From an uncultured Pseudomonadota bacterium (lineage in GTDB: Bacteria; Pseudomonadota; Alphaproteobacteria; Rs-D84), in the NCBI GenBank assembly GCA_902799285.1, contig CADCAA010000004.1, positions 1-41,403 of the forward strand: 41,403 nucleotides of DNA. The letters run 5' to 3'. The translations under genes and the position numbers were made by a program. The notes under the pieces are model-generated. The model was given only the letters and a program-made list of their open reading frames with translations. It searched no databases and was not told the origin of the DNA. Positions 1 to 41,170 of this stretch are shown here, in pieces (the first letter of the stretch is position 1; each line of letters opens with the position of its first letter).

Positions 1-99
1 TACCGCCGATGGTCGTTGTGCCGTTGGCCAAGATGTAACGGTGTTCAACATATAACACAGGCAGGGGGGGCTGATTTACCATGACTATTCTGGACACTG
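1..99. repeat. Terminal direct repeat (circular assembly overlap), left copy
   Basis: 1-99 is identical to 41305-41403; the 99-nt length is typical of a k-mer overlap. Confidence 0.95.
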
Positions 100-905
100 A
101 ATTAAAATCAAAATTTTTGACTGTTATCTGTGACACAATTGTTAACAGCAAAAATCGTAATGATTTTGTTGTCCTGATGGATGAATTAGCCACTGCATGC
201 ACAGCATATACGCAAACTGATTTGTTGTCAAATAAAACATCTTTGTCAAGTTTTAGGGTTTTGGAACTTAATGAAACTGTTTCCAAAACGGAAAAAGTTG
301 CAAAAACAACTGCGCGTCCTGTGCGCGAACGGGTTAATTTGGCTGAAAAATTAGCGGATACCCATTTTGCTGATGTCAGCAATATGGTTGATGATGTTTC
401 AACCGATGATCGTGTTGCTGATGCCGGCAAAACGATTGATCCGGACCAAATAACACCTGTTTGGTTGTCTGAAAACGTCAATTTGGAAGAATATTGGGTT
501 TATGATTTTTCAAAACCTGTGACTATAAAATGTGGAAATTGTGGCTGCCCATGTGTTCAAACCGAATTATGGTTGGTTCATCGCCGCAAATATAAATTGT
601 CATTGGTGGATGCGGAATTTGCAACATTACATGCTTTGCATGATTTCCTGGATCCGCGCAAAGAATTGGCGGCCGAAAACAACATTTATCCACTTGAAAA
701 GATTGATGCCGAATTGGATGGCACCCAGGATAAACAACATACCAAATTACATGCGGATAAAAACCAATCGCAAATGAACCGTTTTATTGAATTTTATCAT
801 CAATTCAATGGTGATGCGGCACAAATTGCCACCGCGATGGGCATTCAGAAACAGTCAGTTTATGCATACAAAAACAAAGCAAAAACAATGGGGGTTTTAA
901 AATGA
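81..905 (+). CDS. Hypothetical early protein with CxxC-like cluster and C-terminal helix-turn-helix
   Basis: 274 aa; CGNCGCPC; C-terminal DAAQIATAMGIQKQSVYAY resembles an HTH; G-rich RBS upstream. Confidence 0.7.
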   Translation: MTILDTELKSKFLTVICDTIVNSKNRNDFVVLMDELATACTAYTQTDLLSNKTSLSSFRVLELNETVSKTEKVAKTTARPVRERVNLAEKLADTHFADVSNMVDDVSTDDRVADAGKTIDPDQITPVWLSENVNLEEYWVYDFSKPVTIKCGNCGCPCVQTELWLVHRRKYKLSLVDAEFATLHALHDFLDPRKELAAENNIYPLEKIDAELDGTQDKQHTKLHADKNQSQMNRFIEFYHQFNGDAAQIATAMGIQKQSVYAYKNKAKTMGVLK

Positions 906-1066
906 TTACGGCATTGGTTATTTATTGGGTTTTGGCCGCGGTTTATTGTGGCGCATCCATCGTTAAATTACGTCTTACAAACGTTTCGTTGCTGATATGT
1001 GGAATATTCGCACCGATACTTTGTTGGGTTATTTTTGGCGCACGATTGGTCGGGGGGCGGAAATGA
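902..1066 (+). CDS. Small membrane protein (54 aa, not in ORF track)
   Basis: ATGA overlap with upstream stop; MITALVIYWVLAAVYCGASIVKLRLTNVSLLICGIFAPILCWVIFGARLVGGRK has two hydrophobic segments. Confidence 0.6.
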   Translation: MITALVIYWVLAAVYCGASIVKLRLTNVSLLICGIFAPILCWVIFGARLVGGRK

Positions 1067-1182
1067 ATCAGCAATTACCATTATTTCCGGTTGATTTAAC
1101 AAAACCAATATTGGATGTGCTATATAACCCGCGCCGGGCGATTGCACGACGCAAAAAAACAGTTTGCCAATGCGGTCGTTAG
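1063..1182 (+). CDS. Small hypothetical protein (39 aa)
   Basis: ATGA overlap, GGGGGG RBS; MNQQLPLFPVDLTKP... Confidence 0.45.
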   Translation: MNQQLPLFPVDLTKPILDVLYNPRRAIARRKKTVCQCGR

Positions 1183-1321
1183 CATTGGCGGTATAATCGG
1201 CATTCTTTGTCTAAATCGTGAAAAATCCCTCCGAATATGCCGATTATATGGGGGCAAACATTGATACCCCCACCAATATGTCCGTGCGGATGGCTAGTAG
1301 TCCCCACGGACTCCCAGTTCC

Positions 1322-1419
1322 GGGGACTGTGCCGCAGATGGTTAGCGGGCCGGTGCAGAAAGGCGTAATTTTCACATGCACCGGCAGTCGTGGGTTCGAT
1401 TCCCACCAGTCCCCCGCCA
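1322..1419 (+). ncRNA. tRNA-like RNA with elongated anticodon arm
   Basis: Acceptor GGGGACTG/CAGTCCCC, D arm CCGC-AGATGGTTA-GCGG, T arm GTGGG-TTCGATT-CCCAC, 3' GCCA; anticodon arm is 35 nt instead of 17. Confidence 0.8.
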
Positions 1420-1517
1420 AGTTTTGGGTTGCACCTAGAAGAAACCATTGAAGAAAGGTGCATAAATGGTTGGTTTCCGCCCCGCCGGTGGGTGTCCCAA
1501 AAAAACCGGCAAATTAT

Positions 1518-1574
1518 GCGGGGGCAATGGTTGATACTTGCAACTGCCGGTTTTAATCATTGCCGCCCGCGCCA
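1518..1574 (+). ncRNA. Long hairpin ending in GCCA (acceptor/minihelix-like)
   Basis: GCGGG-GGCAATGGTTGA pairs with TTAATCATTGCC-(G bulge)-CCCGC, followed directly by GCCA. Confidence 0.55.
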
Positions 1575-1591
1575 AAACAACAGGGTCAAAT

Positions 1592-1906
1592 ATGATAATA
1601 CAACAACAATCTTTGATGCATAATCCGTTTGGATTGATCGGTGCATGTATGGCACACAGTCGTGGCATTTACGCAGCATGGACTGCACATAAAAGCAAAC
1701 ATAATCTTGCGATTGTATATAGCATTTTGAAAACAGATTATGGGTTATCTATTAAATCCCGGTGTCCGGAAACCGCAGCACAAATGGAACGAGATATTAA
1801 GGAAATTATTGCGCATTGCATGCCAGATACCGAATATGAAATTGAACAAGAATGTGAATACGTCCGTGTTTACAAATTACCAAGATTATCAAAGGACACA
1901 AAATGA
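1592..1906 (+). CDS. Hypothetical protein
   Basis: ATG at 1592 after AGGGT RBS; stop overlaps next start. Confidence 0.65.
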   Translation: MIIQQQSLMHNPFGLIGACMAHSRGIYAAWTAHKSKHNLAIVYSILKTDYGLSIKSRCPETAAQMERDIKEIIAHCMPDTEYEIEQECEYVRVYKLPRLSKDTK

Positions 1907-2298
1907 CAAGGATTAACGTTATTCCCGTCAGCGAATTGTCTGATCAGCACCTTATCGCCGAATACCGTGAATTGCCACGTGTGCTGAAACAAAACATCAA
2001 TATCACGGATGCGCCGCATGTGTATTGCCTGGGGCATGGCCACATGAAATGGGCAAAACGGCACAGCATATTTACCGCCCGCCGGTATGGTCAATTATTG
2101 CGCGAAATGCATCACCGCGGATTCAAAACCAATTTTACGGATTCCGGGCCGGAATTATTCACAGCACAAATGCGCGATTATGATTATGACCCAACGGGTC
2201 CGGACATCGAATTAAACCGCCAGCGCATTCGTGAAAAATTTAACATGAAACCGGATTGGTACCGCTGGACCAACCGCACAAAACCAAATTGGTTATAA
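1903..2298 (+). CDS. denV: Pyrimidine-dimer DNA glycosylase (T4 endonuclease V family)
   Basis: N-terminus MTRINVIPVSELSDQHLIAEYRELPRV, plus LGHGHM and W-Y-R C-terminal motifs typical of DenV. Confidence 0.9.
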   Translation: MTRINVIPVSELSDQHLIAEYRELPRVLKQNINITDAPHVYCLGHGHMKWAKRHSIFTARRYGQLLREMHHRGFKTNFTDSGPELFTAQMRDYDYDPTGPDIELNRQRIREKFNMKPDWYRWTNRTKPNWL

Positions 2299-2314
2299 AT
2301 CAAAAGGGGTTAAA

Positions 2315-2971
2315 ATGATTGAAAAATTAAGCGAATATGAAATCACTAGTCGAGATGGGTCTTTTATAAATGTAGAATGCAACACAAAAATAATAAATAC
2401 GCTAGTTCGAAAAATCAACGAACTTGTAGATGCTGTCAATGAAATGCAAGAAAGCCAGAACACATACTGGACAGATATTGCTGAAATAAAGAAAGAATTA
2501 CAAACTCGTGCCGAAAATGTGCAACCAGATGCCGAAAGTCGTCCGGAAAATGTGATAACCGACAAAGATTATATCACAATAACCGCCGACGATGTGCTTG
2601 TTGGTGGCGAATCTGTGCGTGAATATAACGGTGAAAAAATTTATAATTATTATCATTTGCCGGCGTATTTCAAAGAAATTAGGGATGATGTTGCGGAAAA
2701 AGGAATAAAATTACTGGAAATCCATTGTTTGCAATCATCAACAGACGGCGAATATGCCAAAACAGGCAATCCAATGCCCGATAAAGACGGTTGTTCTGCT
2801 TGGTGTCGTTGTGTATGGGAAAAAGACGGTGAAAAACATATTGGGTCGTGGGTGTTCTTCAACTCGTTCAGTTCGGCGGCCTATTGTGCGTACATCTGTG
2901 CGAACCACTGCGCGTACGCCGTTCGCGCCATCGCGGACTTCCGTTCGGCGGTCTTTGGTGGGCAAGATTGA
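2315..2971 (+). CDS. Putative DGR target protein (N-terminal coiled coil, Cys-rich C-terminal variable domain)
   Basis: C-terminal SWVF..SAAxCAxxCAxxCAxxVRxxAxFRSAVFG encoded by A-free constant codons and NNY variable codons. Confidence 0.75.
   Translation: MIEKLSEYEITSRDGSFINVECNTKIINTLVRKINELVDAVNEMQESQNTYWTDIAEIKKELQTRAENVQPDAESRPENVITDKDYITITADDVLVGGESVREYNGEKIYNYYHLPAYFKEIRDDVAEKGIKLLEIHCLQSSTDGEYAKTGNPMPDKDGCSAWCRCVWEKDGEKHIGSWVFFNSFSSAAYCAYICANHCAYAVRAIADFRSAVFGGQD
2843..2962 (+). other. Putative DGR variable region (VR)
   Basis: 40 codons, 74/120 G+C, only 12 A, all at codon positions 1-2 of NNY codons; no codon ends in A. Confidence 0.72.
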
Positions 2972-2998
2972 TAAAGCGTAATGCGTAAGGCAAAATTT

Positions 2999-3083
2999 GG
3001 GGTGTTCTGCAAGGTGCGTTTGAAATTCTAGATAGCACGCTTGCATCGGAAGTCCTGCCGTTCGACTCGGCAACGCCCCACCA
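2999..3083 (+). ncRNA. tRNA-like RNA lacking a D arm
   Basis: Acceptor GGGGTGT/ACGCCCC plus A-CCA; T arm TGCCG-TTCGACT-CGGCA; D and anticodon region replaced by one hairpin TGCAAG-GTGC...GCAC-G-CTTGCA. Confidence 0.75.
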
Positions 3084-3120
3084 AGAAAAAGGCAATATAT
3101 ACAAAATAAAGGAGGCGACA

Positions 3121-3480
3121 ATGAGTGATATGAAATGTCCGTTCTGTCAGCAGGGATTGGAAATGGTTTTACAATTAGCAGGTGCTGGCGGTTTGGTAGA
3201 AGAGGCATATTTATTATGTTCTAAATGTAATATAAGGGGTGAAAGAAAACTATGGCAAGAACTTAAAGACCTTTCCGATAAAATCGGAAAACTGGAACCT
3301 GAATTGGAACGCACACGCAAGGCATTGGATGTCGCAAAGTATGCGTTAAAAAACATAAAAGATGATATGAAAAAAGTAAAAGATGGTGATGATATATGGG
3401 AAATACAAAAAAATCTGCACGATTATTGTAAAACAACCATAAAACAAATAACAACACTAGAACAAAAGGATGTAAAATGA
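3121..3480 (+). CDS. Zinc-ribbon (CPFC...CSKC) plus coiled-coil protein
   Basis: AAGGAGG RBS; two CxxC motifs; ends in LEQKDVK junction. Confidence 0.75.
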   Translation: MSDMKCPFCQQGLEMVLQLAGAGGLVEEAYLLCSKCNIRGERKLWQELKDLSDKIGKLEPELERTRKALDVAKYALKNIKDDMKKVKDGDDIWEIQKNLHDYCKTTIKQITTLEQKDVK

Positions 3481-3854
3481 ACGACAGATTTAAGTTTAGA
3501 GTGTGGGACGATAAAGTATCAAAAAAATATTTTTACCTTGAATTAAAATTTGGCGACAATGGTTATCATCCAGATTTTATTACAGACCCAGTATTTGAAC
3601 AATGCACAGGTTTGAAAGATAAAAATGGAAACCTGATTTATATCGGTGACATAATAAAATGCGGCGATGGTCTATTTAGCACCGCTACTGTAGAATACGC
3701 AAATGGCGAAAACTTTATAGATGGCATATACCCATTTAATTTGTACCACGATTGTGGTGACGAGTGCCATTGTCAGTTGCGCGATTACCCTGAATATGCC
3801 TGTGAAATCATTGGCAACATACACGAACAAGCAGAACAAAAGGATGTAAAATGA
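3477..3854 (+). CDS. YopX family protein
   Basis: KFRVWD...EQCTGLKDKNGNLIYIGDII...EIIGNIHE motifs. Confidence 0.9.
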   Translation: MNDRFKFRVWDDKVSKKYFYLELKFGDNGYHPDFITDPVFEQCTGLKDKNGNLIYIGDIIKCGDGLFSTATVEYANGENFIDGIYPFNLYHDCGDECHCQLRDYPEYACEIIGNIHEQAEQKDVK

Positions 3855-4003
3855 AATACACAATAACACCGTCAGAACAAAAAGTTATAACATTTGCGAA
3901 ATTGCGTAAAATTGCCAAGATTTTATCAAATGAACCTTGTGATATTTGTGCCAAAGGCAACGGTTATGAATTGGATTTTTGTTATGGAAAGGACAAAAAA
4001 TAA
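3851..4003 (+). CDS. Small hypothetical protein (50 aa, not in ORF track)
   Basis: Starts at junction ATG; MKYTITPSEQKVITFAKLRK...CDIC...GKDKK. Confidence 0.6.
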   Translation: MKYTITPSEQKVITFAKLRKIAKILSNEPCDICAKGNGYELDFCYGKDKK

Positions 4004-4028
4004 CAGCACTGGAACAAAAGGACAAGTG

Positions 4029-4241
4029 ATGAAACTAACAGAAATAAATAACACCCAACATTATTGTACGGTTCGTTTTGATAAACAAACACCTGAACAC
4101 ATTGCGGTTCAAATTGGTATTGCCAACAACGGCACTATTGCTATTTGGAACAATCAAGATGGCGACCAAATAAATATACCGTTTAAGGATTTGGGTATTA
4201 AATACATTGTATTTGAAAAAGCAGAACAAAAGGATAAGTGA
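4029..4241 (+). CDS. Hypothetical protein (70 aa)
   Basis: Starts at junction ATG (MKLTEIN), ends AEQKDK. Confidence 0.7.
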   Translation: MKLTEINNTQHYCTVRFDKQTPEHIAVQIGIANNGTIAIWNNQDGDQINIPFKDLGIKYIVFEKAEQKDK

Positions 4242-4387
4242 TGTTTGGGGCGTTTTCAAAAAAACAAATAGGGCAGGTTGAAACAGTTGGCGATAGCAGG
4301 GGTCAGGTATTTAGAAAATTGGTGCAAAAAGGACTTGACCCAAACCAGTTTGAAATTCGTGAGTTGTTAGAACAAAAGGATAAGTAA
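4241..4387 (+). CDS. Small hypothetical protein (48 aa, not in ORF track)
   Basis: TGATG overlap; MFGAFSKKQ...LLEQKDK. Confidence 0.65.
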   Translation: MFGAFSKKQIGQVETVGDSRGQVFRKLVQKGLDPNQFEIRELLEQKDK

Positions 4388-4584
4388 TGACACAAATGCG
4401 TGATAGTTTGGAAATAATAGCACCCAAGGGGTTGATTCATTACATGGATGTGGTTATTCGTTCGTGTTGGGAAAAAATGTATGACGATGAATTTGGGGCA
4501 CTTAAATCACTGCTAGATAGTTGTAAATACTGTATTGAAACAGCAGAAAAGAAAAAATGGGTAAAACAAAAGGACGTGAAATGA
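4387..4584 (+). CDS. Hypothetical protein (65 aa)
   Basis: TAATG overlap; ends KQKDVK. Confidence 0.7.
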   Translation: MTQMRDSLEIIAPKGLIHYMDVVIRSCWEKMYDDEFGALKSLLDSCKYCIETAEKKKWVKQKDVK

Positions 4585-4733
4585 ATTTCATTATAAAAAT
4601 TTTCTGCGGGGTTGGAATGTTTGTTTTGGCCACTGCATTGGGACGTTGGTTGCCATCTTGGAATAATGTTATTTTCTGGATGGCTGGGGTAACTTATTAC
4701 GTATTCTTGGAAGAAATACGAAAAAAAGGATAA
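4581..4733 (+). CDS. Small membrane protein (50 aa, not in ORF track)
   Basis: Junction ATG; MNFIIKIFCGVGMFVLATALG...VIFWMAGVTYYVFL has two hydrophobic segments. Confidence 0.6.
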   Translation: MNFIIKIFCGVGMFVLATALGRWLPSWNNVIFWMAGVTYYVFLEEIRKKG

Positions 4734-4736
4734 ACG

Positions 4737-4874
4737 ATGAAACAATATCAATATGACTATATTTGCGCAATGCTTTGGAGTATTTTTGGGTGTATGTTGA
4801 ATGATCCATTAAGTATCGTTGCATGGATTGTAGGAATTGTTTACGGCACAATTGCCATTTTTTCAAAAAAGTAA
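4737..4874 (+). CDS. Small membrane protein (45 aa, not in ORF track)
   Basis: AAGGA RBS; MKQYQYDYICAMLWSIFGCMLNDPLSIVAWIVGIVYGTIAIFSKK. Confidence 0.55.
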   Translation: MKQYQYDYICAMLWSIFGCMLNDPLSIVAWIVGIVYGTIAIFSKK

Positions 4875-4886
4875 AGGCGGTGCAAA

Positions 4887-5306
4887 ATGAAACCGGCATT
4901 AAAACGCATTATTGATATAGATTTGTTAGTACCGGATGTGCCGCCAAAATTGAATTTTACCGATATTGAATGGGCGGCGGGTGTGGTTGCCAAACGTATT
5001 TTTAATCTTCGCACAACGCCGTATCATTACTGGTTTGGTGCAATATATGGCATTTATGCAAAAACAGATGATGGCAAAGATATTATTACCGTTGATAGTA
5101 TTGCGCCGCACAATGGGCATTTTGAATTGTTTTTGGATGAATTGGAAAAATACGCCGCGCGAACCGGTGAACGTATCGCGTTTTGTGCGTTTATGAATGA
5201 AAAACTGTACCGGCATATTCGCAAACGCCCAAATTGGGGCAACGCATTATCAACAATGGATCGGTTGGAATATTATCCACCAAAAGCACAAGAGACAGCC
5301 AAATGA
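4887..5306 (+). CDS. Hypothetical protein
   Basis: 139 aa, AAGGCGG RBS, stop overlaps next start. Confidence 0.7.
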   Translation: MKPALKRIIDIDLLVPDVPPKLNFTDIEWAAGVVAKRIFNLRTTPYHYWFGAIYGIYAKTDDGKDIITVDSIAPHNGHFELFLDELEKYAARTGERIAFCAFMNEKLYRHIRKRPNWGNALSTMDRLEYYPPKAQETAK

Positions 5307-5641
5307 AAACATTACATCTGGTTCTTAAAAGTAAATGGTATGACAAAATCGCCAGTGGCGAAAAGACATCGGAATATCGCGCATGCACACCGTATTGGAA
5401 CAAACGGTTATCGTATCTGTGCCGCGATGGCGCACACGGCGCAGACGATTATGCCAGATACAGCAATTATGATGGGTGGGATTTTACACCATATTGCGAA
5501 TATTCTCGCGTATGTTTTCATCGTGGTTATACAAATCAAACAATGGTTTTTGAAATAAACAAGGTCTTAATAACAACAGAACCCAACGACTTGGGGTTGG
5601 ACAAATGCTGGGAAATTAAATTGGGCAAACGATTGGCTTGA
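5303..5641 (+). CDS. ASCH domain protein
   Basis: MKTLHLVLKSKWYDKIASGEKTSEYR...PYWNKRL...FHRGY is the ASCH signature. Confidence 0.85.
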   Translation: MKTLHLVLKSKWYDKIASGEKTSEYRACTPYWNKRLSYLCRDGAHGADDYARYSNYDGWDFTPYCEYSRVCFHRGYTNQTMVFEINKVLITTEPNDLGLDKCWEIKLGKRLA

Positions 5642-5667
5642 TTTTATTTGATAAAGGTGGCACAGTA

Positions 5668-5928
5668 ATGACAAAACTTGAACATAAATTGACAAGAATG
5701 GCCAGCGCAAATGGTTATTCACCATCAGATACCGAATTGTATTCGGCATCTGGTCATCTTGTCCGGTTTTTGCGTGCTGTGACCGTATTAAAGAAAGAAC
5801 ATGACGACAAATTGCGTAATTTTGGCCCGGATCAGTTCCGAGAAACAAGACAAAGAATATTCGCTGCCGGCGCAGGTATCACGCCTGTCCGACTATGCGG
5901 CACGCCGGCAAATGACCGTATTGCGTGA
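5668..5928 (+). CDS. Hypothetical protein overlapping integrase start (possible directionality factor)
   Basis: AAAGGTGG RBS before ATG 5668; long overlap with integrase lowers confidence; function inferred from position only. Confidence 0.35.
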   Translation: MTKLEHKLTRMASANGYSPSDTELYSASGHLVRFLRAVTVLKKEHDDKLRNFGPDQFRETRQRIFAAGAGITPVRLCGTPANDRIA

Positions 5929-7348
5929 ATTTGTTTTAGTCGAATCATCCACAACCGGTGACCGTAAAAAATTCCTTGAATGTTTAAATTATTGCGTAGC
6001 AAATCGCGCCGCATTATTGATTGATACAATTGATCGCGCCCAGCGGTCTTTTATGGAAATACCGCTTTTAGAAAAATACCGCCGTTCTGGGCAATTGGAA
6101 ATCCATTTTTGCCGTGAAAACATTGTTATAAATGCCGAAAGTTCCGGCACTGAAATCATTATGTGGCACCAGGGTGTTTTAATGGCGGAATCATACAGTT
6201 TGCATTTCAAAGAAAATGTTAAACGGTCCATTTCGGTAAAGGTTGCCCGGGGCGAATATCCGGGTCGTGGGCCTTTGGGTTATAAAAACATCCGCACCGC
6301 TCATAATCGGTCTGATATTTTGCCGGATGATAATGCGGATCTTGTGCGGCAATTATTCGTAAAATATGGCTCTGGGGACGTTTCGTTGTCCGGACTGGTT
6401 AGTTATGCCTATGATATTGGTTTGCGCACTGATACGGGCGGAAAGTTGGCAAAATCGCATATTCATAAAATAATGTCAAATCCGTTTTATTATGGTGTGG
6501 CCCGGTGGGGCAAATATACATTTCCGCATAAATATACGCCACTGATTGAAAAACCGCTTTGGGATAAATGTAATGCGCTTTTGGCGGGCAAAAATCAGCA
6601 CCCATCAACCCGGTGGGGCAGCAAGGATTATTTGTATCGCGGTTTAATTCGTGATTTTTATTCACATCGTCTGGTTACAACCGAACGCAAAAAGGATAAA
6701 TACAATTATTTGATGACATGGAATGAATCCGGGCGGCATGTGGCGGTCAATGAAGATGTGGTTACTGCCCAAATATATAAAGTGTTGAAAATGATCCAAG
6801 TGCCACGCGATGTTATTGCCGATGTGCGGGAATATCTGAAATCGGCCAAGGAAATCGAATCGGAATATGCAGCGCGTGCCATAGCAGAATTGCAAAATGA
6901 TTTGAATGTGGCGATAAAACGACAATCGGCATTGGTGAATATGTACCTGGATGGCAAAATCGCCGATGACCTGTATTCGACCAAAGATGCCGAATTAAAG
7001 GCGCAAATTGCGGAAATTCAATCAAAACTGGATGCCAATGTTTCTGCGGATTCCGGTGTAAATGATACAATTGTCCAGTTATTTACCGCGGCATCGTGTG
7101 CGGCGGATCTGTTTATAGAAAGTTCGGAAGTTGCCCCAAAACGCGAAATCATAAAATCCATCTTCCGAACTGTTGAATTAAAAGGCAAAACCCTTTGTTA
7201 TGACTTGAATTTTCCGTTCAATTTATTCATAACAAAGGGTGAAAGAACTATATGGCGCGCCCTAGCGGACGATTTCCGAACTTTGTATGCAGATGATGTG
7301 CGGAAATTTGCGGCAAATTGGAATTGGGTGGTGCCGTTGGCCGCATAA
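5801..7348 (+). CDS. Large serine recombinase (integrase)
   Basis: ARISSEKQ catalytic motif, DTIDRAQR, recombinase domain (PLGYKN, SNPFYYG, PLIEKPLW), C-terminal coiled coil. Confidence 0.95.
   Translation: MTTNCVILARISSEKQDKEYSLPAQVSRLSDYAARRQMTVLREFVLVESSTTGDRKKFLECLNYCVANRAALLIDTIDRAQRSFMEIPLLEKYRRSGQLEIHFCRENIVINAESSGTEIIMWHQGVLMAESYSLHFKENVKRSISVKVARGEYPGRGPLGYKNIRTAHNRSDILPDDNADLVRQLFVKYGSGDVSLSGLVSYAYDIGLRTDTGGKLAKSHIHKIMSNPFYYGVARWGKYTFPHKYTPLIEKPLWDKCNALLAGKNQHPSTRWGSKDYLYRGLIRDFYSHRLVTTERKKDKYNYLMTWNESGRHVAVNEDVVTAQIYKVLKMIQVPRDVIADVREYLKSAKEIESEYAARAIAELQNDLNVAIKRQSALVNMYLDGKIADDLYSTKDAELKAQIAEIQSKLDANVSADSGVNDTIVQLFTAASCAADLFIESSEVAPKREIIKSIFRTVELKGKTLCYDLNFPFNLFITKGERTIWRALADDFRTLYADDVRKFAANWNWVVPLAA
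7253..7269 (-). other. Putative attP core resembling a tRNA-Arg 3' end
   Basis: Minus strand reads TCCGCTAGGGCGCGCCA; AGGGCGCGCCA is the 3' end of argU-type tRNA-Arg; lies inside the integrase C-terminal coding region. Confidence 0.6.
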
Positions 7349-7353
7349 AAAAG

Positions 7354-7378
7354 ACCTTTCCGACACAATCGGAAAGGT
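7354..7378. terminator. Bidirectional terminator between convergent integrase and lysin
   Basis: ACCTTTCCGA-CACAA-TCGGAAAGGT, A-run on the left, T-rich on the right. Confidence 0.75.
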
Positions 7379-7442
7379 GCTTTGTGTAAAATAAATCGTA
7401 TTTTATTATCAACAAACGATTTTGTTTATATTTTAATATAAC

Positions 7443-7847
7443 CTATGAAAAGAATAACAGCAATTCTTCGGCGCGGCGTTTTGCTAAACCTTTCAAGAAT
7501 TGACCTCCGCCGGTGACCCAATCCCAATTTTTCCAAACTGCTTTCCAATCTTTGGCAATTATTGCTTTTTTCAAACTGGACCGATCAAATGCGCCTTGGC
7601 CGATATTGTATATTAAAGACCTTAATGCTTCCTGTTGGTTGGAATTTAATCCTGTGGGCAGTTTTATATTTTGTTTGATATACATGGTTAAAAATGCTTC
7701 GGCCTCGGCACGACTGATTTTATCGCCCTCGCGCACAGGTTGGCCATTTGGATATACCGTTGTACCGTATCCGATTGTCCAGACACCCGCCGGACATTTA
7801 TATGCAGTTAACCGACACCCCTCGTACTTTCTTATCAATTCGTACAT
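7443..7847 (-). CDS. Endolysin, GH24 phage lysozyme
   Basis: YEGCRLTAYKCPAGVWTIGYG...YNIG...GLAKRRAEE. Confidence 0.95.
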   Translation of the reverse strand: MYELIRKYEGCRLTAYKCPAGVWTIGYGTTVYPNGQPVREGDKISRAEAEAFLTMYIKQNIKLPTGLNSNQQEALRSLIYNIGQGAFDRSSLKKAIIAKDWKAVWKNWDWVTGGGQFLKGLAKRRAEELLLFFS

Positions 7848-7862
7848 GTTTACCCTCCTTGG

Positions 7863-8174
7863 TTATTTAAGTATTTTTCTGGCGATATAAAATCCAATCA
7901 TTGCCACCAGTGCAAAAAACGACCATTTCCAGCGCAATTTTTCCTGTTCAATCACCCGTTTTTCGGTTTCGCATGCTGTTGAAATGGTCTTTATTTGTGA
8001 TTTTATGCCGTTTATTTGGCTTTTTATATTTTCTGTGGCACATTGTGCCGACAAGGATTGTTCCAGTGCCGTGGTGGCATTTATTGCGTTTTGTGCAATA
8101 TCATGACTGACGGATTGCGCCCCACAGGACGATAACATAAATGATACCAAGAATAATCCAAAGCATTTTTTCAA
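7863..8174 (-). CDS. Putative unimolecular spanin (lipoprotein with C-terminal TM helix)
   Basis: Lipobox LSSC at residue 17, coiled coil, C-terminal WSFFALVAMIGFYIA; next to lysin. Confidence 0.65.
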   Translation of the reverse strand: MKKCFGLFLVSFMLSSCGAQSVSHDIAQNAINATTALEQSLSAQCATENIKSQINGIKSQIKTISTACETEKRVIEQEKLRWKWSFFALVAMIGFYIARKILK

Positions 8175-14480: not shown

Positions 14481-15608
14481 TTAACCAATTATGACTGCAA
14501 AATATGTGTCGGATGCGATATCTGATGTAGAATTTATTGTTATTGTTACGGTACTGCTGGATGTGTTAACTTCGACACCAACCTCGTCGCCGGTACTGGA
14601 TTCATACACATGGACACCGACATGTTTTGTTGTCAGTGTATTGTTTATATTCCAAACACATACACCACCCGTTGCCGTCAATGCCGGATTTGATACGGTT
14701 AATTTTTGCGTTGCCGTTGCACCCGCAGCCGCGCCCGAACGAATTGTTGCCAAATCCGAAATTGCATCTTGCTTGGCATTCCATGTTGTTTTATCTGCGG
14801 CAGTTACGAATTTATTGGTCGCCGTTGAATCATCTACCAAATCTGAATCCAATTTATTGGCAGATGTAATTTCTGTTTGCAGACCCGCAACCAAATCCGC
14901 AACAGGCACATCAATTGTTGCGCCGCTTTGCAGTGTCAAAACAATCTTTTTATTCGTGGAATCATATGTTCCGTTTACAACCACACTTTCGATTGGGAAA
15001 TCGACCGTTTTGGTACTTAATGCCGTGCCATCTTGGTCTTTTAATGTCATGGTCAAAACATATGTCGTTGTATTCAGAGACAAATCAAATGATGCGCCAT
15101 ATTTCGTACTGGCAGGCAATGCAGAAACATCCGCAGCTGTTGTTGGTACGGTAATATTGACCGTTTTATTAGTAACCGTTTGTGCGGTATTATTAACCTT
15201 GATTGTTTCAATAACGTTTTCTTGAAACCCACTGGGGTTGGTTGCATTATATGGCATAAAACCCAATGCGGTTGTCACATCAGAACCAGAAATTCCGGTA
15301 ATATAACCAGCATCATTTGTTAAATCACTGACATTTACAGGAATATCTGATTTTTTCGCAACAATGGTATAATCAACCGATATTGTTGTTCCAGAAATAT
15401 CAATTCCCGAACCGGCGGTATAGATTCTGCCTTGGGATAATGCATCAATCCATTCGGCACCATTGTATACAAATAATGTATTGGTTGATGTATTAAAATA
15501 ATGTTGTCCTGCCTTGGGCGCAGTGGGTGCCAAAGCCAAATTCTGAAAGACCGCATTTTGCAGTTCATTCTGGGCCAGATCCAAGTCTGCTAAAAATTTA
15601 TATGCCAT
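14481..15608 (-). CDS. Virion structural / fibre protein
   Basis: T-rich; LDLAQNELQNA, VSDLTNDAGYIT, NVIETIKVN motifs common in tail fibres. Confidence 0.75.
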   Translation of the reverse strand: MAYKFLADLDLAQNELQNAVFQNLALAPTAPKAGQHYFNTSTNTLFVYNGAEWIDALSQGRIYTAGSGIDISGTTISVDYTIVAKKSDIPVNVSDLTNDAGYITGISGSDVTTALGFMPYNATNPSGFQENVIETIKVNNTAQTVTNKTVNITVPTTAADVSALPASTKYGASFDLSLNTTTYVLTMTLKDQDGTALSTKTVDFPIESVVVNGTYDSTNKKIVLTLQSGATIDVPVADLVAGLQTEITSANKLDSDLVDDSTATNKFVTAADKTTWNAKQDAISDLATIRSGAAAGATATQKLTVSNPALTATGGVCVWNINNTLTTKHVGVHVYESSTGDEVGVEVNTSSSTVTITINSTSDIASDTYFAVIIG

Positions 15609-15620
15609 ATTTTACTCCTT

Positions 15621-15929
15621 TTAATTTAGATAAGCCTTGCCTTTGAATGGGCTGCTAAATTTAACAACAATCGTATTTTCATCATAAAATTCTCTTTCAC
15701 ACCCAACAACAGTCCCGGCACTATCGACCACGGTAATTGATGGATGTTTGCCAAGATTGTGTGGAATTATCCACACATTTGACGCGGTCCCTTGGGTATA
15801 TGTATATGTGCCACAACACGGTTTTGGTTTTTTATTCACAATAACTGTACTTTTTACCTCCACTGTATTTGGTACCGGTGGTTCTGGGTTTTCGTTATTT
15901 ATAACAAAATTATTTCTTACATCGACCAA
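15621..15929 (-). CDS. Small virion protein
   Basis: QGTASNVWIIPHNLGKHPSITVVDSAG...FSSPFKGKAYLN. Confidence 0.7.
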   Translation of the reverse strand: MVDVRNNFVINNENPEPPVPNTVEVKSTVIVNKKPKPCCGTYTYTQGTASNVWIIPHNLGKHPSITVVDSAGTVVGCEREFYDENTIVVKFSSPFKGKAYLN

Positions 15930-15956
15930 TATAATCCCCTATTTTTATTGGTTTTA

Positions 15957-16970
15957 TTATGCTGTTCTGCGCCATACATTAACTACGTATGCTGGTGGTT
16001 GAACCGTCGAACTTTTGCCATAAATAGAATTAGAATTAGCAGCATTAAAATCATACTTTCTTTGGCTCGTAATCCCAGCGCCTTGCGCAAGATAATATTG
16101 ACTTTCGGTACTTGGGGTCCCAGAAAAAGCACCTGTATGAGCGATTGCAGATGCGCCCAGACAGTCTGCCGAGAATTTTCCGGTGATATTTGGTAATCCT
16201 GCATCAATTGTAGTATTTCCATTAGTGCCATTACCTGTCCATAACGCTTTGCCGCTTGGTACTAATTCCCAAGTTGAATTTGGTATAAGAATTGCCATGG
16301 GACATGTGGATTGTGTACCAAAATATAATGAACCAACGGGATATACCGCCCCCAAAACATTGGAAACAAATGCCGTTGTTGCAATCTGCGTGCTACTGTT
16401 TCCTGTTGGTGGCGTTGGTGCGGTTGGCGTGCCAGTTAGTGCCGCATCTTGGAATGAAATAATTTTTGGCCACCATGACCATTCGTCATCGGTATGATTA
16501 TATTGCGCCCAACCACCCTGTTGTCCATCTTGTTCGGGTATGTCCCAGAATTTTGATGTAATCAAAATTGTAAAATCAATGTCGGCCGGTGGAACAAATG
16601 TCCCCGTTTGGGTCCAACCCGACAAATCACTTTTTGCCGAATATGTATTCAATGTTGTGAAATCAATATAATTTTGTTCCGGCAATGTGGGATTTGGCAC
16701 TGTAAAATTGGCGGTTGTTTTACCAAACCAATATGATCCCTTGGTTACCCCGGATGTTGCGGCACGTTCCGTCAAATATTTAATTGCATCGGCAATTTGA
16801 TGCAAATTTTCGTCTGTGGGTGTCATATCCGCCGCCACAATTACCGCCAATAATTCATCCAAAACCGTATTAAAAAATTCGGCATCCGGATTTGAACCGG
16901 CAATTGTTGGTTGCGCGTTTACATATCTTTCTGATGCTGATGTTGCCCCATGTGGTGCTATCCATTTCAT
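15957..16970 (-). CDS. Baseplate-anchored tail fibre protein
   Basis: N-terminal FNTVLDEL..VI.AA anchor, ALTGTPTAPT...QIATTAFV, C-terminal YPVGSLY...WRRTA domain. Confidence 0.85.
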   Translation of the reverse strand: MKWIAPHGATSASERYVNAQPTIAGSNPDAEFFNTVLDELLAVIVAADMTPTDENLHQIADAIKYLTERAATSGVTKGSYWFGKTTANFTVPNPTLPEQNYIDFTTLNTYSAKSDLSGWTQTGTFVPPADIDFTILITSKFWDIPEQDGQQGGWAQYNHTDDEWSWWPKIISFQDAALTGTPTAPTPPTGNSSTQIATTAFVSNVLGAVYPVGSLYFGTQSTCPMAILIPNSTWELVPSGKALWTGNGTNGNTTIDAGLPNITGKFSADCLGASAIAHTGAFSGTPSTESQYYLAQGAGITSQRKYDFNAANSNSIYGKSSTVQPPAYVVNVWRRTA

Positions 16971-16985
16971 ATTTTACCCCTTTGT

Positions 16986-17531
16986 TTAACCTGCCACTGT
17001 CACCCCAAATTGCACATGCGCCGGCAGGAACGATTCCATATATTTTGTAAAATCGTCCAATGATACATCGCCAGTTGATGACAAAACTTTTATTCCAATC
17101 ATTGATCGGGTTACCCCAATTTCGCGCAAATCCACCCCACATTGTGAATTTGGATCGCCACAGGTAAACGGCAAATGACGGATTATTTCAATTTCATAAC
17201 CAATATCCGCCGCCAATTTAATCAATGCATCCAATGTCGGAAATTGCTTTTTTTGTGATTTTTGTAATATTTGTATGCGCCGTTGTTCCACAGATAACGA
17301 CGTATCGGTCGGAATATTATAATCGGATTCCCATTCCGGCAATAATTCATCGGCAAATTGTACACGTGTTTCCAATGCAATGCGCGACAAATCATTTTCC
17401 AAAATTGCCATACATGCACCAATTGCCCACATCAATTGATGCATTACCGATCCGGGTGCGCGATTCCATGCGGGACCCGCCGGCAATAATGCCAGCGCAG
17501 CATCACGATATTGTGTGTTCGTATGTGCCAT
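16986..17531 (-). CDS. Baseplate protein, Mu gp48/YmfQ (DUF2313)-like
   Basis: LLPAGPAW...LLPEWE...PAH. Confidence 0.85.
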   Translation of the reverse strand: MAHTNTQYRDAALALLPAGPAWNRAPGSVMHQLMWAIGACMAILENDLSRIALETRVQFADELLPEWESDYNIPTDTSLSVEQRRIQILQKSQKKQFPTLDALIKLAADIGYEIEIIRHLPFTCGDPNSQCGVDLREIGVTRSMIGIKVLSSTGDVSLDDFTKYMESFLPAHVQFGVTVAG

Positions 17532-18601
17532 TATTCACCCGTCCCATATGTTATTGTTCCCAAAACAGCAATTCCATTGACCGGAACCGTTGTATCGGTC
17601 ACCGGTTGCGCCAATACATGTGAAATTTCGCCTGGGGTTGACCCAATTGCGGTTTCAATTTGCCCACGATATACCGTTTCACCAAAGTTATATCCGGCAA
17701 ATAATAAACCCAATGAGTCATTAATCGCACTTTTTAACTGTTCAGAATTCGGTGTTAAATCATTAATTGTTATATTTATCACCGTGGGTTCGGGTGCAAA
17801 TACAATTATTTCATTCAAATCCGCCGGCATTATTGATTCCAAATATTCTTTCATATCGGCAATATCACCAGCATGCGGTATGCCATCATCGTATGTATTG
17901 TCCATCATAAATGTTACACCGACTGTGCCGGCCCCAGCATATGTCCGATATGCCCGCGCACGTGTAACACCGGGGCGCGACAATGCCGCGTTTTCATAAA
18001 ATATCGTGTCCCCGGCACCGGCCTCGCTACGCAATGCCAATAATAACCGGGCACGATATGCCTCGGTTTCTTCGGTTTCGGCACCACCGGTTATACCGTT
18101 GGAATCAGCAGTCGCCACACTTAACAATCCGGCAATTGGATTTACCAAAGTAAATTCCGTATTTGGATCCGCGTTTCCATTTAATCCTGTGGATGTTGCC
18201 TGGACCGGAACGGTTACCGTCCCATTTGATTCCACAACCGCGTCGGCCGTTGTTTTGTATTGTTGTTCGGACACGGTTGAATACAATGTCCCCAATGGTA
18301 TATTTGTCCCGGCCGTTCCGGTAATAATAATATTTCCGGTGGCAAACGATGCCTTTTTCCGGAATACACCCATATCCGACCCACGCGCCATTAAACCATT
18401 GATATCTGCGGTTGTTATAAAAAAATTCTTGGCCATTTCATCCAGATATACATATAAATCCAGATGCAACGCGGCAATAACTTTTGCCAATACATTAAAT
18501 ACAGATTGTTTAATAAACGCATTTGCGTGTTCCACATATGTGTTTATGTTTGTACAAACCCTGTTGATTAATTCTGTAAGTGTTGGACGTGTAAAAGCCA
18601 T
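17531..18601 (-). CDS. Baseplate J / Mu gp47-like protein
   Basis: MAFTRPTLTEL, GGAETE..EAYRARLL, GAGTVGV. Confidence 0.9.
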   Translation of the reverse strand: MAFTRPTLTELINRVCTNINTYVEHANAFIKQSVFNVLAKVIAALHLDLYVYLDEMAKNFFITTADINGLMARGSDMGVFRKKASFATGNIIITGTAGTNIPLGTLYSTVSEQQYKTTADAVVESNGTVTVPVQATSTGLNGNADPNTEFTLVNPIAGLLSVATADSNGITGGAETEETEAYRARLLLALRSEAGAGDTIFYENAALSRPGVTRARAYRTYAGAGTVGVTFMMDNTYDDGIPHAGDIADMKEYLESIMPADLNEIIVFAPEPTVINITINDLTPNSEQLKSAINDSLGLLFAGYNFGETVYRGQIETAIGSTPGEISHVLAQPVTDTTVPVNGIAVLGTITYGTGE

Positions 18602-39444: not shown

Positions 39445-39478
39445 TTTCCTTTCCCCCTGTTTTCTTTTTCATGCGTAT

Positions 39479-39525
39479 TGTAAATTATAAATTACATAAA
39501 GTCAAGCAATTTGTGCAACTTATAA
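39479..39525 (-). promoter_or_regulatory. Leftward early promoter/operator
   Basis: TTGACT-N17-TACAAT; 42/47 identical to the inverted copy at 41088-41134. Confidence 0.8.
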
Positions 39526-39581
39526 TTGACACAGCAAAAACAAGTAGTGGAAATTTTGCAAATTCAGTATATAATCTGAAT

Positions 39582-41034: not shown

Positions 41035-41087
41035 TTGTTTTCCTTTTGTTTTTATTTTACATAATTTGCTCCTTTTTGTTTATTTGT

Positions 41088-41134
41088 TTATAAATTACAC
41101 AAATCACTTGACATTATGTAATTTATAATTTACA
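41088..41134 (+). promoter_or_regulatory. Rightward early promoter/operator
   Basis: TTGACA-N17-TACACT; inverted near-copy of 39479-39525. Confidence 0.8.
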
Positions 41135-41170
41135 CTATGTATCGGACAAAGGCAAATTAAGGAGGAAATC

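Follow-up and report, generated by a model that had tools for sequence, protein, structure and literature searches.

The DNA under study (the window, 41,403 nt) contains a block of short genes at 3100..4880 of the forward strand, in which one short repeat recurs at the gene junctions, and this raises the question why otherwise unrelated genes should share their ends. The window was found to be a complete circular phage genome of 41,304 bp with a 99-nt terminal overlap. Genes for terminase, portal, capsid, sheath, baseplate, endolysin and a large serine integrase are present and characterize it as a temperate myophage. It is contig C4 of an assembly of 857,750 bases (858 kb) that represents the 94% complete genome of a small-genome gut host, and the entire stretch is also contained in a bovine gut metagenome run, from which it may originate. 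The block has a G+C content of 35.4%, compared with 41-45% in the flanking segments. The answer that is favoured here, and that is regarded as probable, is that the repeat is a linker of stop codon, ribosome site and start codon, which would serve as a short-homology joint for swapping, adding, dropping and reordering early genes by general recombination.

The repeat core is 11 nt long (GAACAAAAGGA) and combines the end of the upstream gene with the AAGGA ribosome site and the start of the downstream gene. An initial annotation of the window, made from its sequence, had listed six copies and a degenerate seventh, and all seven were confirmed (Table 1); in every case exactly 6 nt separate the core from an ATG (3477, 3851, 4029, 4241, 4387, 4581, 4737). 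It was also verified that five of the seven copies (1, 2, 4, 5 and 6) encode the C-terminus and the stop codon of the upstream gene in frame, and that two subtypes exist 5′ of the core. The annotation had further regarded G-run ribosome sites as typical of the other genes, which did not hold, as several other phage genes have A-rich AAAGGA sites (before 41034-, 10677-, 28609- and 28204-). All five exact occurrences of GAACAAAAGGA in the 857,750-base assembly fall within 3460-4380, and at one mismatch or fewer 14 matches were found versus 3.16 ± 1.78 in 100 shuffles, none of which reached 14. Chi-type hotspots are over-represented across the host chromosome, and a Chi-like hotspot of the host was ruled out by the finding of zero GAACAAAAGGA outside the array in 858 kb.

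The loci of relatives were retrieved with the repeat motif itself. Five motif scans yielded 136 loci (designated L plus a number), which together with the window were merged into 81 stretches and then into 75 non-redundant arrays. Because the loci were retrieved by the motif and the copies share descent, counts across loci are not independent. At least two copies are present in 55 of the 75 arrays, and the maximum is eight. L109 and L034 turned out to be one phage, and L109 was left out from the breakage analysis onward, leaving 74 arrays. Genes were called with a simple in-house caller, which agreed with manual calls in the window's array. Clustered copies were also found in two genomes of the host assembly's genus, and GAACAAAAGGA-N4-9-ATG occurs in 165 of 298 family genomes, in most of them as one to three scattered copies.

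The repeat is carried by many phages with different capsids and integrases, and it lies at the ends of near-identical gene blocks. Five of the six inter-copy segments of the window recur in other phages as repeat-bounded blocks with 90-99.5% identity and different neighbours. Homology blocks of at least 100 nt and at least 85% identity were counted in 3121-4900; 13 of their 16 ends lie in junction windows, which make up 15% of that region, and the other three in the RTRKALDV patch, the ITTLEQK tail and the interior of the YopX gene. A comparison of 129 cassettes revealed 19 pairs that match over their full length, and both flanks differ in 17 of these, while the remaining two represent the L034/L109 duplicate, i.e., one phage found twice. 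The initial annotation had proposed a search of relatives for changes of gene content at the repeat, and the recurrence of whole inter-repeat segments with both neighbours changed bears this idea out. Gene order differs as well: of 309 pairs of families seen within 3 kb of arrays, 28 occurred in both orders. In the study that includes the bovine gut run, contigs were found that join the window at positions 4371 and 4568. Shuffling at the repeat is thus supported by the comparison of related sequences.

Four relatives have different window cassettes directly 3′ of YopX, and a polarised, integron-like insertion site at this position was considered; it was rejected because the same cassettes follow other genes elsewhere and because the YopX end gives the longest homology (about 50 nt). 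Indels between two genomes that are bounded by copies were found at the family level only (L082/L086, L118/L135, L020/L013), and, the family being mosaic, they were not counted as proof. In favour of exchange, one pair has the appearance of a capture (L064|7 and L112|2, which end in EPKD and EQKD, respectively). Joints that would indicate circles or deletions between copies were not seen in the assembled contigs of the bovine gut run (X1), the sole data type examined.

Judged from its codons, the repeat is under a constraint that acts on the nucleic acid and not on the peptide. GAA CAA AAG was used in 127 of 128 C-terminal EQK[DE] ends, while codon usage gives 0.86 x 0.69 x 0.24. If EQKD(V)K were instead selected at the protein level, as a C-terminal degradation or localisation signal, an open frame would be expected, and indeed 154 of 190 copies are preceded by 30 or more open codons in the EQK frame. 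However, such a signal does not account for the fixed synonymous codons, nor for the 36 of 190 copies with fewer than 30 open codons, which are out of frame or non-coding and include copy 3 of the window, nor for the variation of the residues 3′ of EQKD. A peptide tag is therefore hardly credible. The out-of-frame, post-stop arrangement of copy 3 is also present in L019.

Retention of the repeat where it is non-coding would also fit a control site at the RNA level, at which a protein or RNA binds and co-regulates translation or processing of early genes, shuffling being a by-product. GAACA is located 5′ of the stretch that the end of the host 16S rRNA (…GATCACCTCCTTT) can pair with. GAACA 5′ of AAAGGA was found at 147 of 626 starts near arrays, a count that is partly circular because the array zone is defined by the motif, versus none of 176 host starts. 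The repeat vaguely resembles a CsrA site; CsrA was not found in the 94% complete host genome, which led to rejection of this candidate, although its absence is not proven. The repeat is asymmetric, occurs in a single orientation at a fixed distance of 6 nt 5′ of the ATG, and is confined to the non-structural region, as is described for the start-associated sequences (SAS) of Cluster K mycobacteriophages (PMC3203893). Against a regulatory site stand the free exchange of the adjoining gene, the closest relative, L087, which lacks the repeat, and the lack of a regulator common to the carriers. Control at the RNA level is thus a distinctly improbable explanation.

Because mosaic breakpoints sit at gene ends regardless, a breakage control was run. 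For each gene shared at 85% identity or more between two arrays it was determined whether the homology extends into the neighbour. In the 74 arrays, homology was broken at 24 of 24 junctions with the repeat in both phages and at 23 of 23 with the repeat in one (together 47/47), versus 82 of 119 with the repeat in neither. Counted per gene family and side, 33 of 33 were always broken with the repeat versus 40 of 75 without it, and within 600 nt of arrays the values were 47/47 versus 34/43 for repeat-free junctions. The excess at repeat junctions is real in these counts, but it is confounded.

A number of observations weigh against a decisive role of the repeat. The 82 broken repeat-free junctions mean that shuffling occurs without it, and the 34 of 43 near arrays that the region is mosaic even there. 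The breakage excess is confounded by relatedness, because the three phage pairs that could be tested both ways broke 3/3 and 7/7, which makes them an uninformative control, and because the kept junctions stem from ten phage pairs, five of which supplied most. Breakpoints were likewise found at further short patches that phages share, both at other ribosome-site contexts and at intragenic boxes, and one contig from another study retains 4215-4575 across copy 5, so that a repeat junction was kept. It follows that the repeat is the commonest hub, but only one of several short homologies at which this region exchanges DNA. An annealing protein was not recognised in this phage. Minimal segments of 23-27 bp for Red-beta and of 31-34 bp for RecA are given in PMC3945230, and the bare core is below the former, because the exact identity between two copies has a median of 12 nt; it is at least 23 nt in 10% of the pairs, and the extended subtypes reach the range of Red-beta. 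The initial view of the junctions as recombination joints for insertion, loss and reordering therefore stands with regard to exchange and reordering at the repeat, while the repeat is not required for shuffling.

The breakage of repeat-free junctions would also agree with a passive marker, i.e., a strong coupled ribosome site of two very common families. Illegitimate joins would then occur anywhere, and breakpoints would gather at the repeat without guidance by homology, because selection keeps only joins with a working stop and start. Selection at gene boundaries is the standard alternative for mosaic joints (PMC3233612). The resemblance of the core to host ribosome sites, as in the mostly scattered matches of the family genomes, the fact that two families hold 59 of the 178 repeat-ending genes, and the shortness of an 11-nt core for homologous recombination all point in the same direction. 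What a passive marker leaves unexplained is that 79 unrelated families have the same 11 letters at their ends, with fixed synonymous codons, that GAACA precedes AAAGGA at none of the host starts, and that both ends of 90-100% identical blocks lie on copies. It is considered rather unlikely, but it is the alternative that was taken most seriously.

Two additional features of the breakpoints were noted. Where breakpoints lack the main repeat, second junction families recur, e.g., AAAGGAAAGGAAATG and AAAGGTGGCAACAATG (array ends of L004, L013, L028, L034, L068 and L072). In addition, patches within genes are common to many phages and differ in between, a pattern of half-gene shuffling (Table 1); their sequences are MSDMKCPFC; LWQEL/RTRKALDVA; CTGLKDKNG and IIGNIHEQ of YopX; and IEKL...INEL.

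The initial annotation had called the array integron-like, with no dedicated integrase adjacent to it. However, the large serine integrase is encoded about 1 kb downstream, and a true site-specific cassette system was considered, in which this or another dedicated recombinase cuts the repeat as IntI does at attC. Single promoterless open reading frames (ORFs) between direct repeats and the observed reordering of cassettes would be in accord with it. The distribution of recombinases is not: 39 viral records were searched (22 of them at least 90% complete), and among the 38 that bear the repeat none has a serine recombinase, four have a tyrosine integrase, and none has the window's capsid. L087, the sole record with both the capsid (81%) and the integrase (89%) of the window, has zero copies, and at the same locus the array block is replaced by unrelated, repeat-free small genes. 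The serine integrase was thus rejected as cassette recombinase; it is likely the phage's own integrase and is not coupled to the repeat. An attC-like hairpin shared by the six copies was not found on either strand (70-nt folds of 0 to -7.5 kcal/mol, no shuffled control). Among pairs that share the downstream gene, 3 of 15 have the same 6-nt spacer, and among those that share the upstream gene 1 of 9 (chance 0.12); because the spacer follows neither flanking gene there is no fixed cut point. A site-specific system is thereby largely refuted and very improbable. Integrons are alike in having tandem single-ORF cassettes, mostly of unknown function, that are shared across genomes, but IntI, attI/attC hairpins and a fixed crossover, as described for them in PMC8618304, are not features of this array, and "integron-like" is retained as an analogy.

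The positions at which homology begins and ends vary. With the repeat in both phages, homology of shared downstream genes starts 16-44 nt 5′ of the ATG, and that of shared upstream genes mostly stops 3-6 nt past the ATG. Genes similar to Erf, Sak, Sak4 or RecT were found in the retrieved DNA of 23 of 73 other arrays (17 of the 40 with at least 10 kb), and the host has RecA. The variable crossover and the annealing proteins near arrays suggest that homologous recombination operates at the repeat.

On this basis a possible course of events for the linker can be outlined. It may have originated from an A-rich AAGGA ribosome site of host style at the 3′ end of two common families, the ITALEQKD-tailed one and YopX. 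New genes would gain it through rare illegitimate joins or conversion of a similar ribosome site, and would then be mobile. Erf, Sak, Sak4, RecT or the host RecA would anneal the 11-nt core together with the 5′ tail and the spacer-ATG, in total about 17-45 nt of imperfect homology, the partners being co-infecting phages or prophages. Every product would restore stop, ribosome site and start, so that recombinants would stay expressed and survive selection. Exchange would be infrequent, of a relaxed homologous type, and independent of a dedicated recombinase. It is deduced from contig comparison. A more far-reaching version, which is offered tentatively, is that one connector is common to unrelated phages of one bacterial genus and that any gene flanked by it on both sides enters a common pool of over 100 cassettes, which would move between lineages with different capsids and integrases, possibly as small circles, with the help of general annealing proteins. 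The connector would then spread and stay uniform because each exchange rebuilds an expressed, translation-coupled junction.

The genes that end at the repeat are diverse. In all arrays 178 were counted, of which 44 belong to the mosaic ITALEQKD-tailed family (54 by a looser count) and 15 to YopX, and 119 are spread over 79 other families. No Pfam match was obtained for 113 of 132 sampled repeat-flanked proteins; among those with a match are DNA methyltransferases, HNH nucleases, YopX and a phosphatase. In L013 (6000-6689) and L006 (6000-6878), cassette genes, namely a YopX gene and ITALEQKD-family genes, contain a fused HNH nuclease domain. For the first gene of the window's array the Atlas matches were unnamed clusters, and a weak Lar-like lead was obtained (0.84; TM 0.36); of the YopX gene, the ends and one internal patch alone are common to other phages. 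In 900-5900, 17 promoter-like sites were found versus 16.6 in shuffles and five terminator-like sites versus 5.3, none of the latter in the array. A known RNA was not detected in the array, an Rfam search of 1-8000 having revealed only a tRNA at 1323-1414.

Several features in the neighbourhood are listed in Table 1. The gene directly 5′ of the array ends in a variable region of a diversity-generating retroelement (DGR), and at 15 of 15 positions that differ from the template on host contig C42 (L181, G000:C42) the template has adenine. The DGR reverse transcriptase is encoded on this host contig, and the phage itself has none. The gene 5′ of the array has relatives with comparable ends close to the arrays of L012, L016 and L026, and a search of those records for reverse transcriptase gave no match. 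L087 has its own DGR-like set 3′ of the endolysin gene (14493-17555), with a reverse transcriptase, an Avd-like gene, a template-like stretch and a gene end similar to a variable region. L087 also has the same tRNA stretch, with the surrounding pieces reordered.

Table 1. Positions of the junction copies, the array genes and neighbouring features (window coordinates unless a host contig is named).
Feature	Position	Strand	Remarks
Junction copy 1	3460..3479	+	GAACAAAAGGA + 6 nt + ATG; EQKDVK* of gene 3121-3480; extended ITTLEQK subtype
Junction copy 2	3834..3853	+	EQKDVK* of YopX gene; 23 exact nt in common with copy 1
Junction copy 3	4012..4031	+	ITALEQKDK-type tail, out of frame, 3′ of stop of gene 3851-4003
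Junction copy 4	4224..4243	+	EQKDK* of gene 4029-4241
Junction copy 5	4370..4389	+	EQKDK* of gene 4241-4387
Junction copy 6	4564..4583	+	AAACAAAAGGA; KQKDVK* of gene 4387-4584; related contig rejoins window at 4568
Junction copy 7	4720..4739	+	Degenerate, one mismatch; upstream gene reads RKKG*
119-aa gene	3121..3480	+	Mosaic family: CPxC N-terminus, RTRKALDVA patch, ITxLEQKD tail; 44-54 of the 178 repeat-ending genes
YopX-family gene	3477..3854	+	PF09643, E 1e-12
50-aa cassette gene	3851..4003	+	Segment 3833-4022 99.5% identical in L019, neighbours differ
70-aa cassette gene	4029..4241	+	Segment 4012-4243 96.6% identical in L068
48-aa cassette gene	4241..4387	+	4224-4392 93.6% in L034; 4215-4380 92.3% in L004; neighbours differ in each
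65-aa cassette gene	4387..4584	+	Segment 4373-4586 93.9% identical in L013
50-aa hydrophobic cassette gene	4581..4733	+	Segment 4565-4742 89.9% identical in L083
45-aa hydrophobic gene	4737..4874	+	Last gene with start from a (degenerate) copy
Large serine integrase	5801..7348	+	PF00239 + PF07508
Intragenic patches	3108-3163, 3265-3335, 3595-3641, 3803-3854, 2306-2454		85-100% in many phages
Gene directly 5′ of array	2315-2971		DGR variable region at 2846-2959
DGR parts on host contig C42	1477-1590 and 2206-3231
tRNA-like gene	1323-1415		ARAGORN Ser, Rfam 48.7 bits; located where the variable region of the genome begins
Endonuclease V-type pyrimidine-dimer glycosylase gene	1903-2298		Flanks variable region, with phrog_625 gene
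phrog_625 gene	5303-5641		Flanks variable region
86-codon ORF	5668-5928		Overlaps serine integrase start in another frame; intact in L087, conserved in related contigs
Inverted repeat	39471-39540 / 41073-41142		70 nt, 79% complementary, 1.5 kb apart, around repressor region

The repeat was compared with known systems. The linker or boundary sequences of lambdoid phages (Susskind and Botstein 1978; Clark et al. 2001; cited in PMC3233612, PMC3029335 and PMC2839356) are likewise short conserved junction sequences, which were proposed as targets of homologous recombination by which modules are exchanged in a working context. In contrast to these, a single linker occurs here in tandem around single mini-genes and combines the functions of C-terminus, stop, ribosome site and start; it is common to phages with unrelated capsids and integrases, whereas lambdoid linkers mark fixed map positions. 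The defining properties of linkers are present, i.e., a conserved junction sequence common to 74-75 non-redundant arrays and mosaic boundaries that coincide with it (47/47 versus 82/119).

A second parallel are the PeSL cassettes of T4-type phages (Arbiol et al. 2010, PMC2839356), whose repeats surround non-essential ORFans of a hyperplastic region. Recombination between copies is described there as the cause of gain, loss and replacement, with no dedicated recombinase, and the authors also draw the comparison with integrons. However, a PeSL consists of promoter and terminator and isolates its cassette transcriptionally, whereas the present repeat couples genes translationally and neither signal exceeds shuffles; hence the Sigma-70 promoter and terminator stem-loop are missing, while gain, loss and replacement of ORFans at the repeats are shared. 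PeSL mini-circles were demonstrated, while circles were not seen in the contigs examined here.

The SAS of Cluster K mycobacteriophages (Pope et al. 2011, PMC3203893) are also asymmetric repeats in one orientation, with a Shine-Dalgarno core some bases before the ATG of non-structural genes. They are proposed to act in translation and remain linked to the same gene families, and a role in shuffling is not known to have been proposed for them, whereas here the neighbours change at the repeat; furthermore, the present repeat sits inside the end of the upstream gene, and an ESAS-like inverted repeat was not seen at it. The Shine-Dalgarno-type repeat and its position agree with membership in the SAS, but by inspection the 13-bp SAS consensus is absent, and the host group differs. 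Genes 67/68 of Island3, a Cluster I mycobacteriophage (PMC3029335), are unrelated neighbours with a common C-terminal coding tail, for which indels by general recombination are considered possible. This is a single event with an 18-residue tail, while dozens of families and arrays of up to eight copies are involved here. Junction cassettes of stop, ribosome site and start were not found as a named class in the literature searched, the coverage of which was incomplete. Taken together, the repeat is a variant of the phage linker/boundary sequences and the PeSL cassettes.

Whether linkers guide exchange by homology, or selection acts as a filter on random joins, is a question of long standing that is still open (PMC3233612, PMC3029335). 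The present system offers an unusually clean test case for it: there is one 11-nt linker with some 200 copies, its cargo belongs to dozens of unrelated families, and cassettes that are nearly identical occur in different surroundings. It also reveals traffic of single genes between phages without a recognisable common capsid or integrase, and the pool of small early genes would be worth screening for roles in host takeover or counter-defence.

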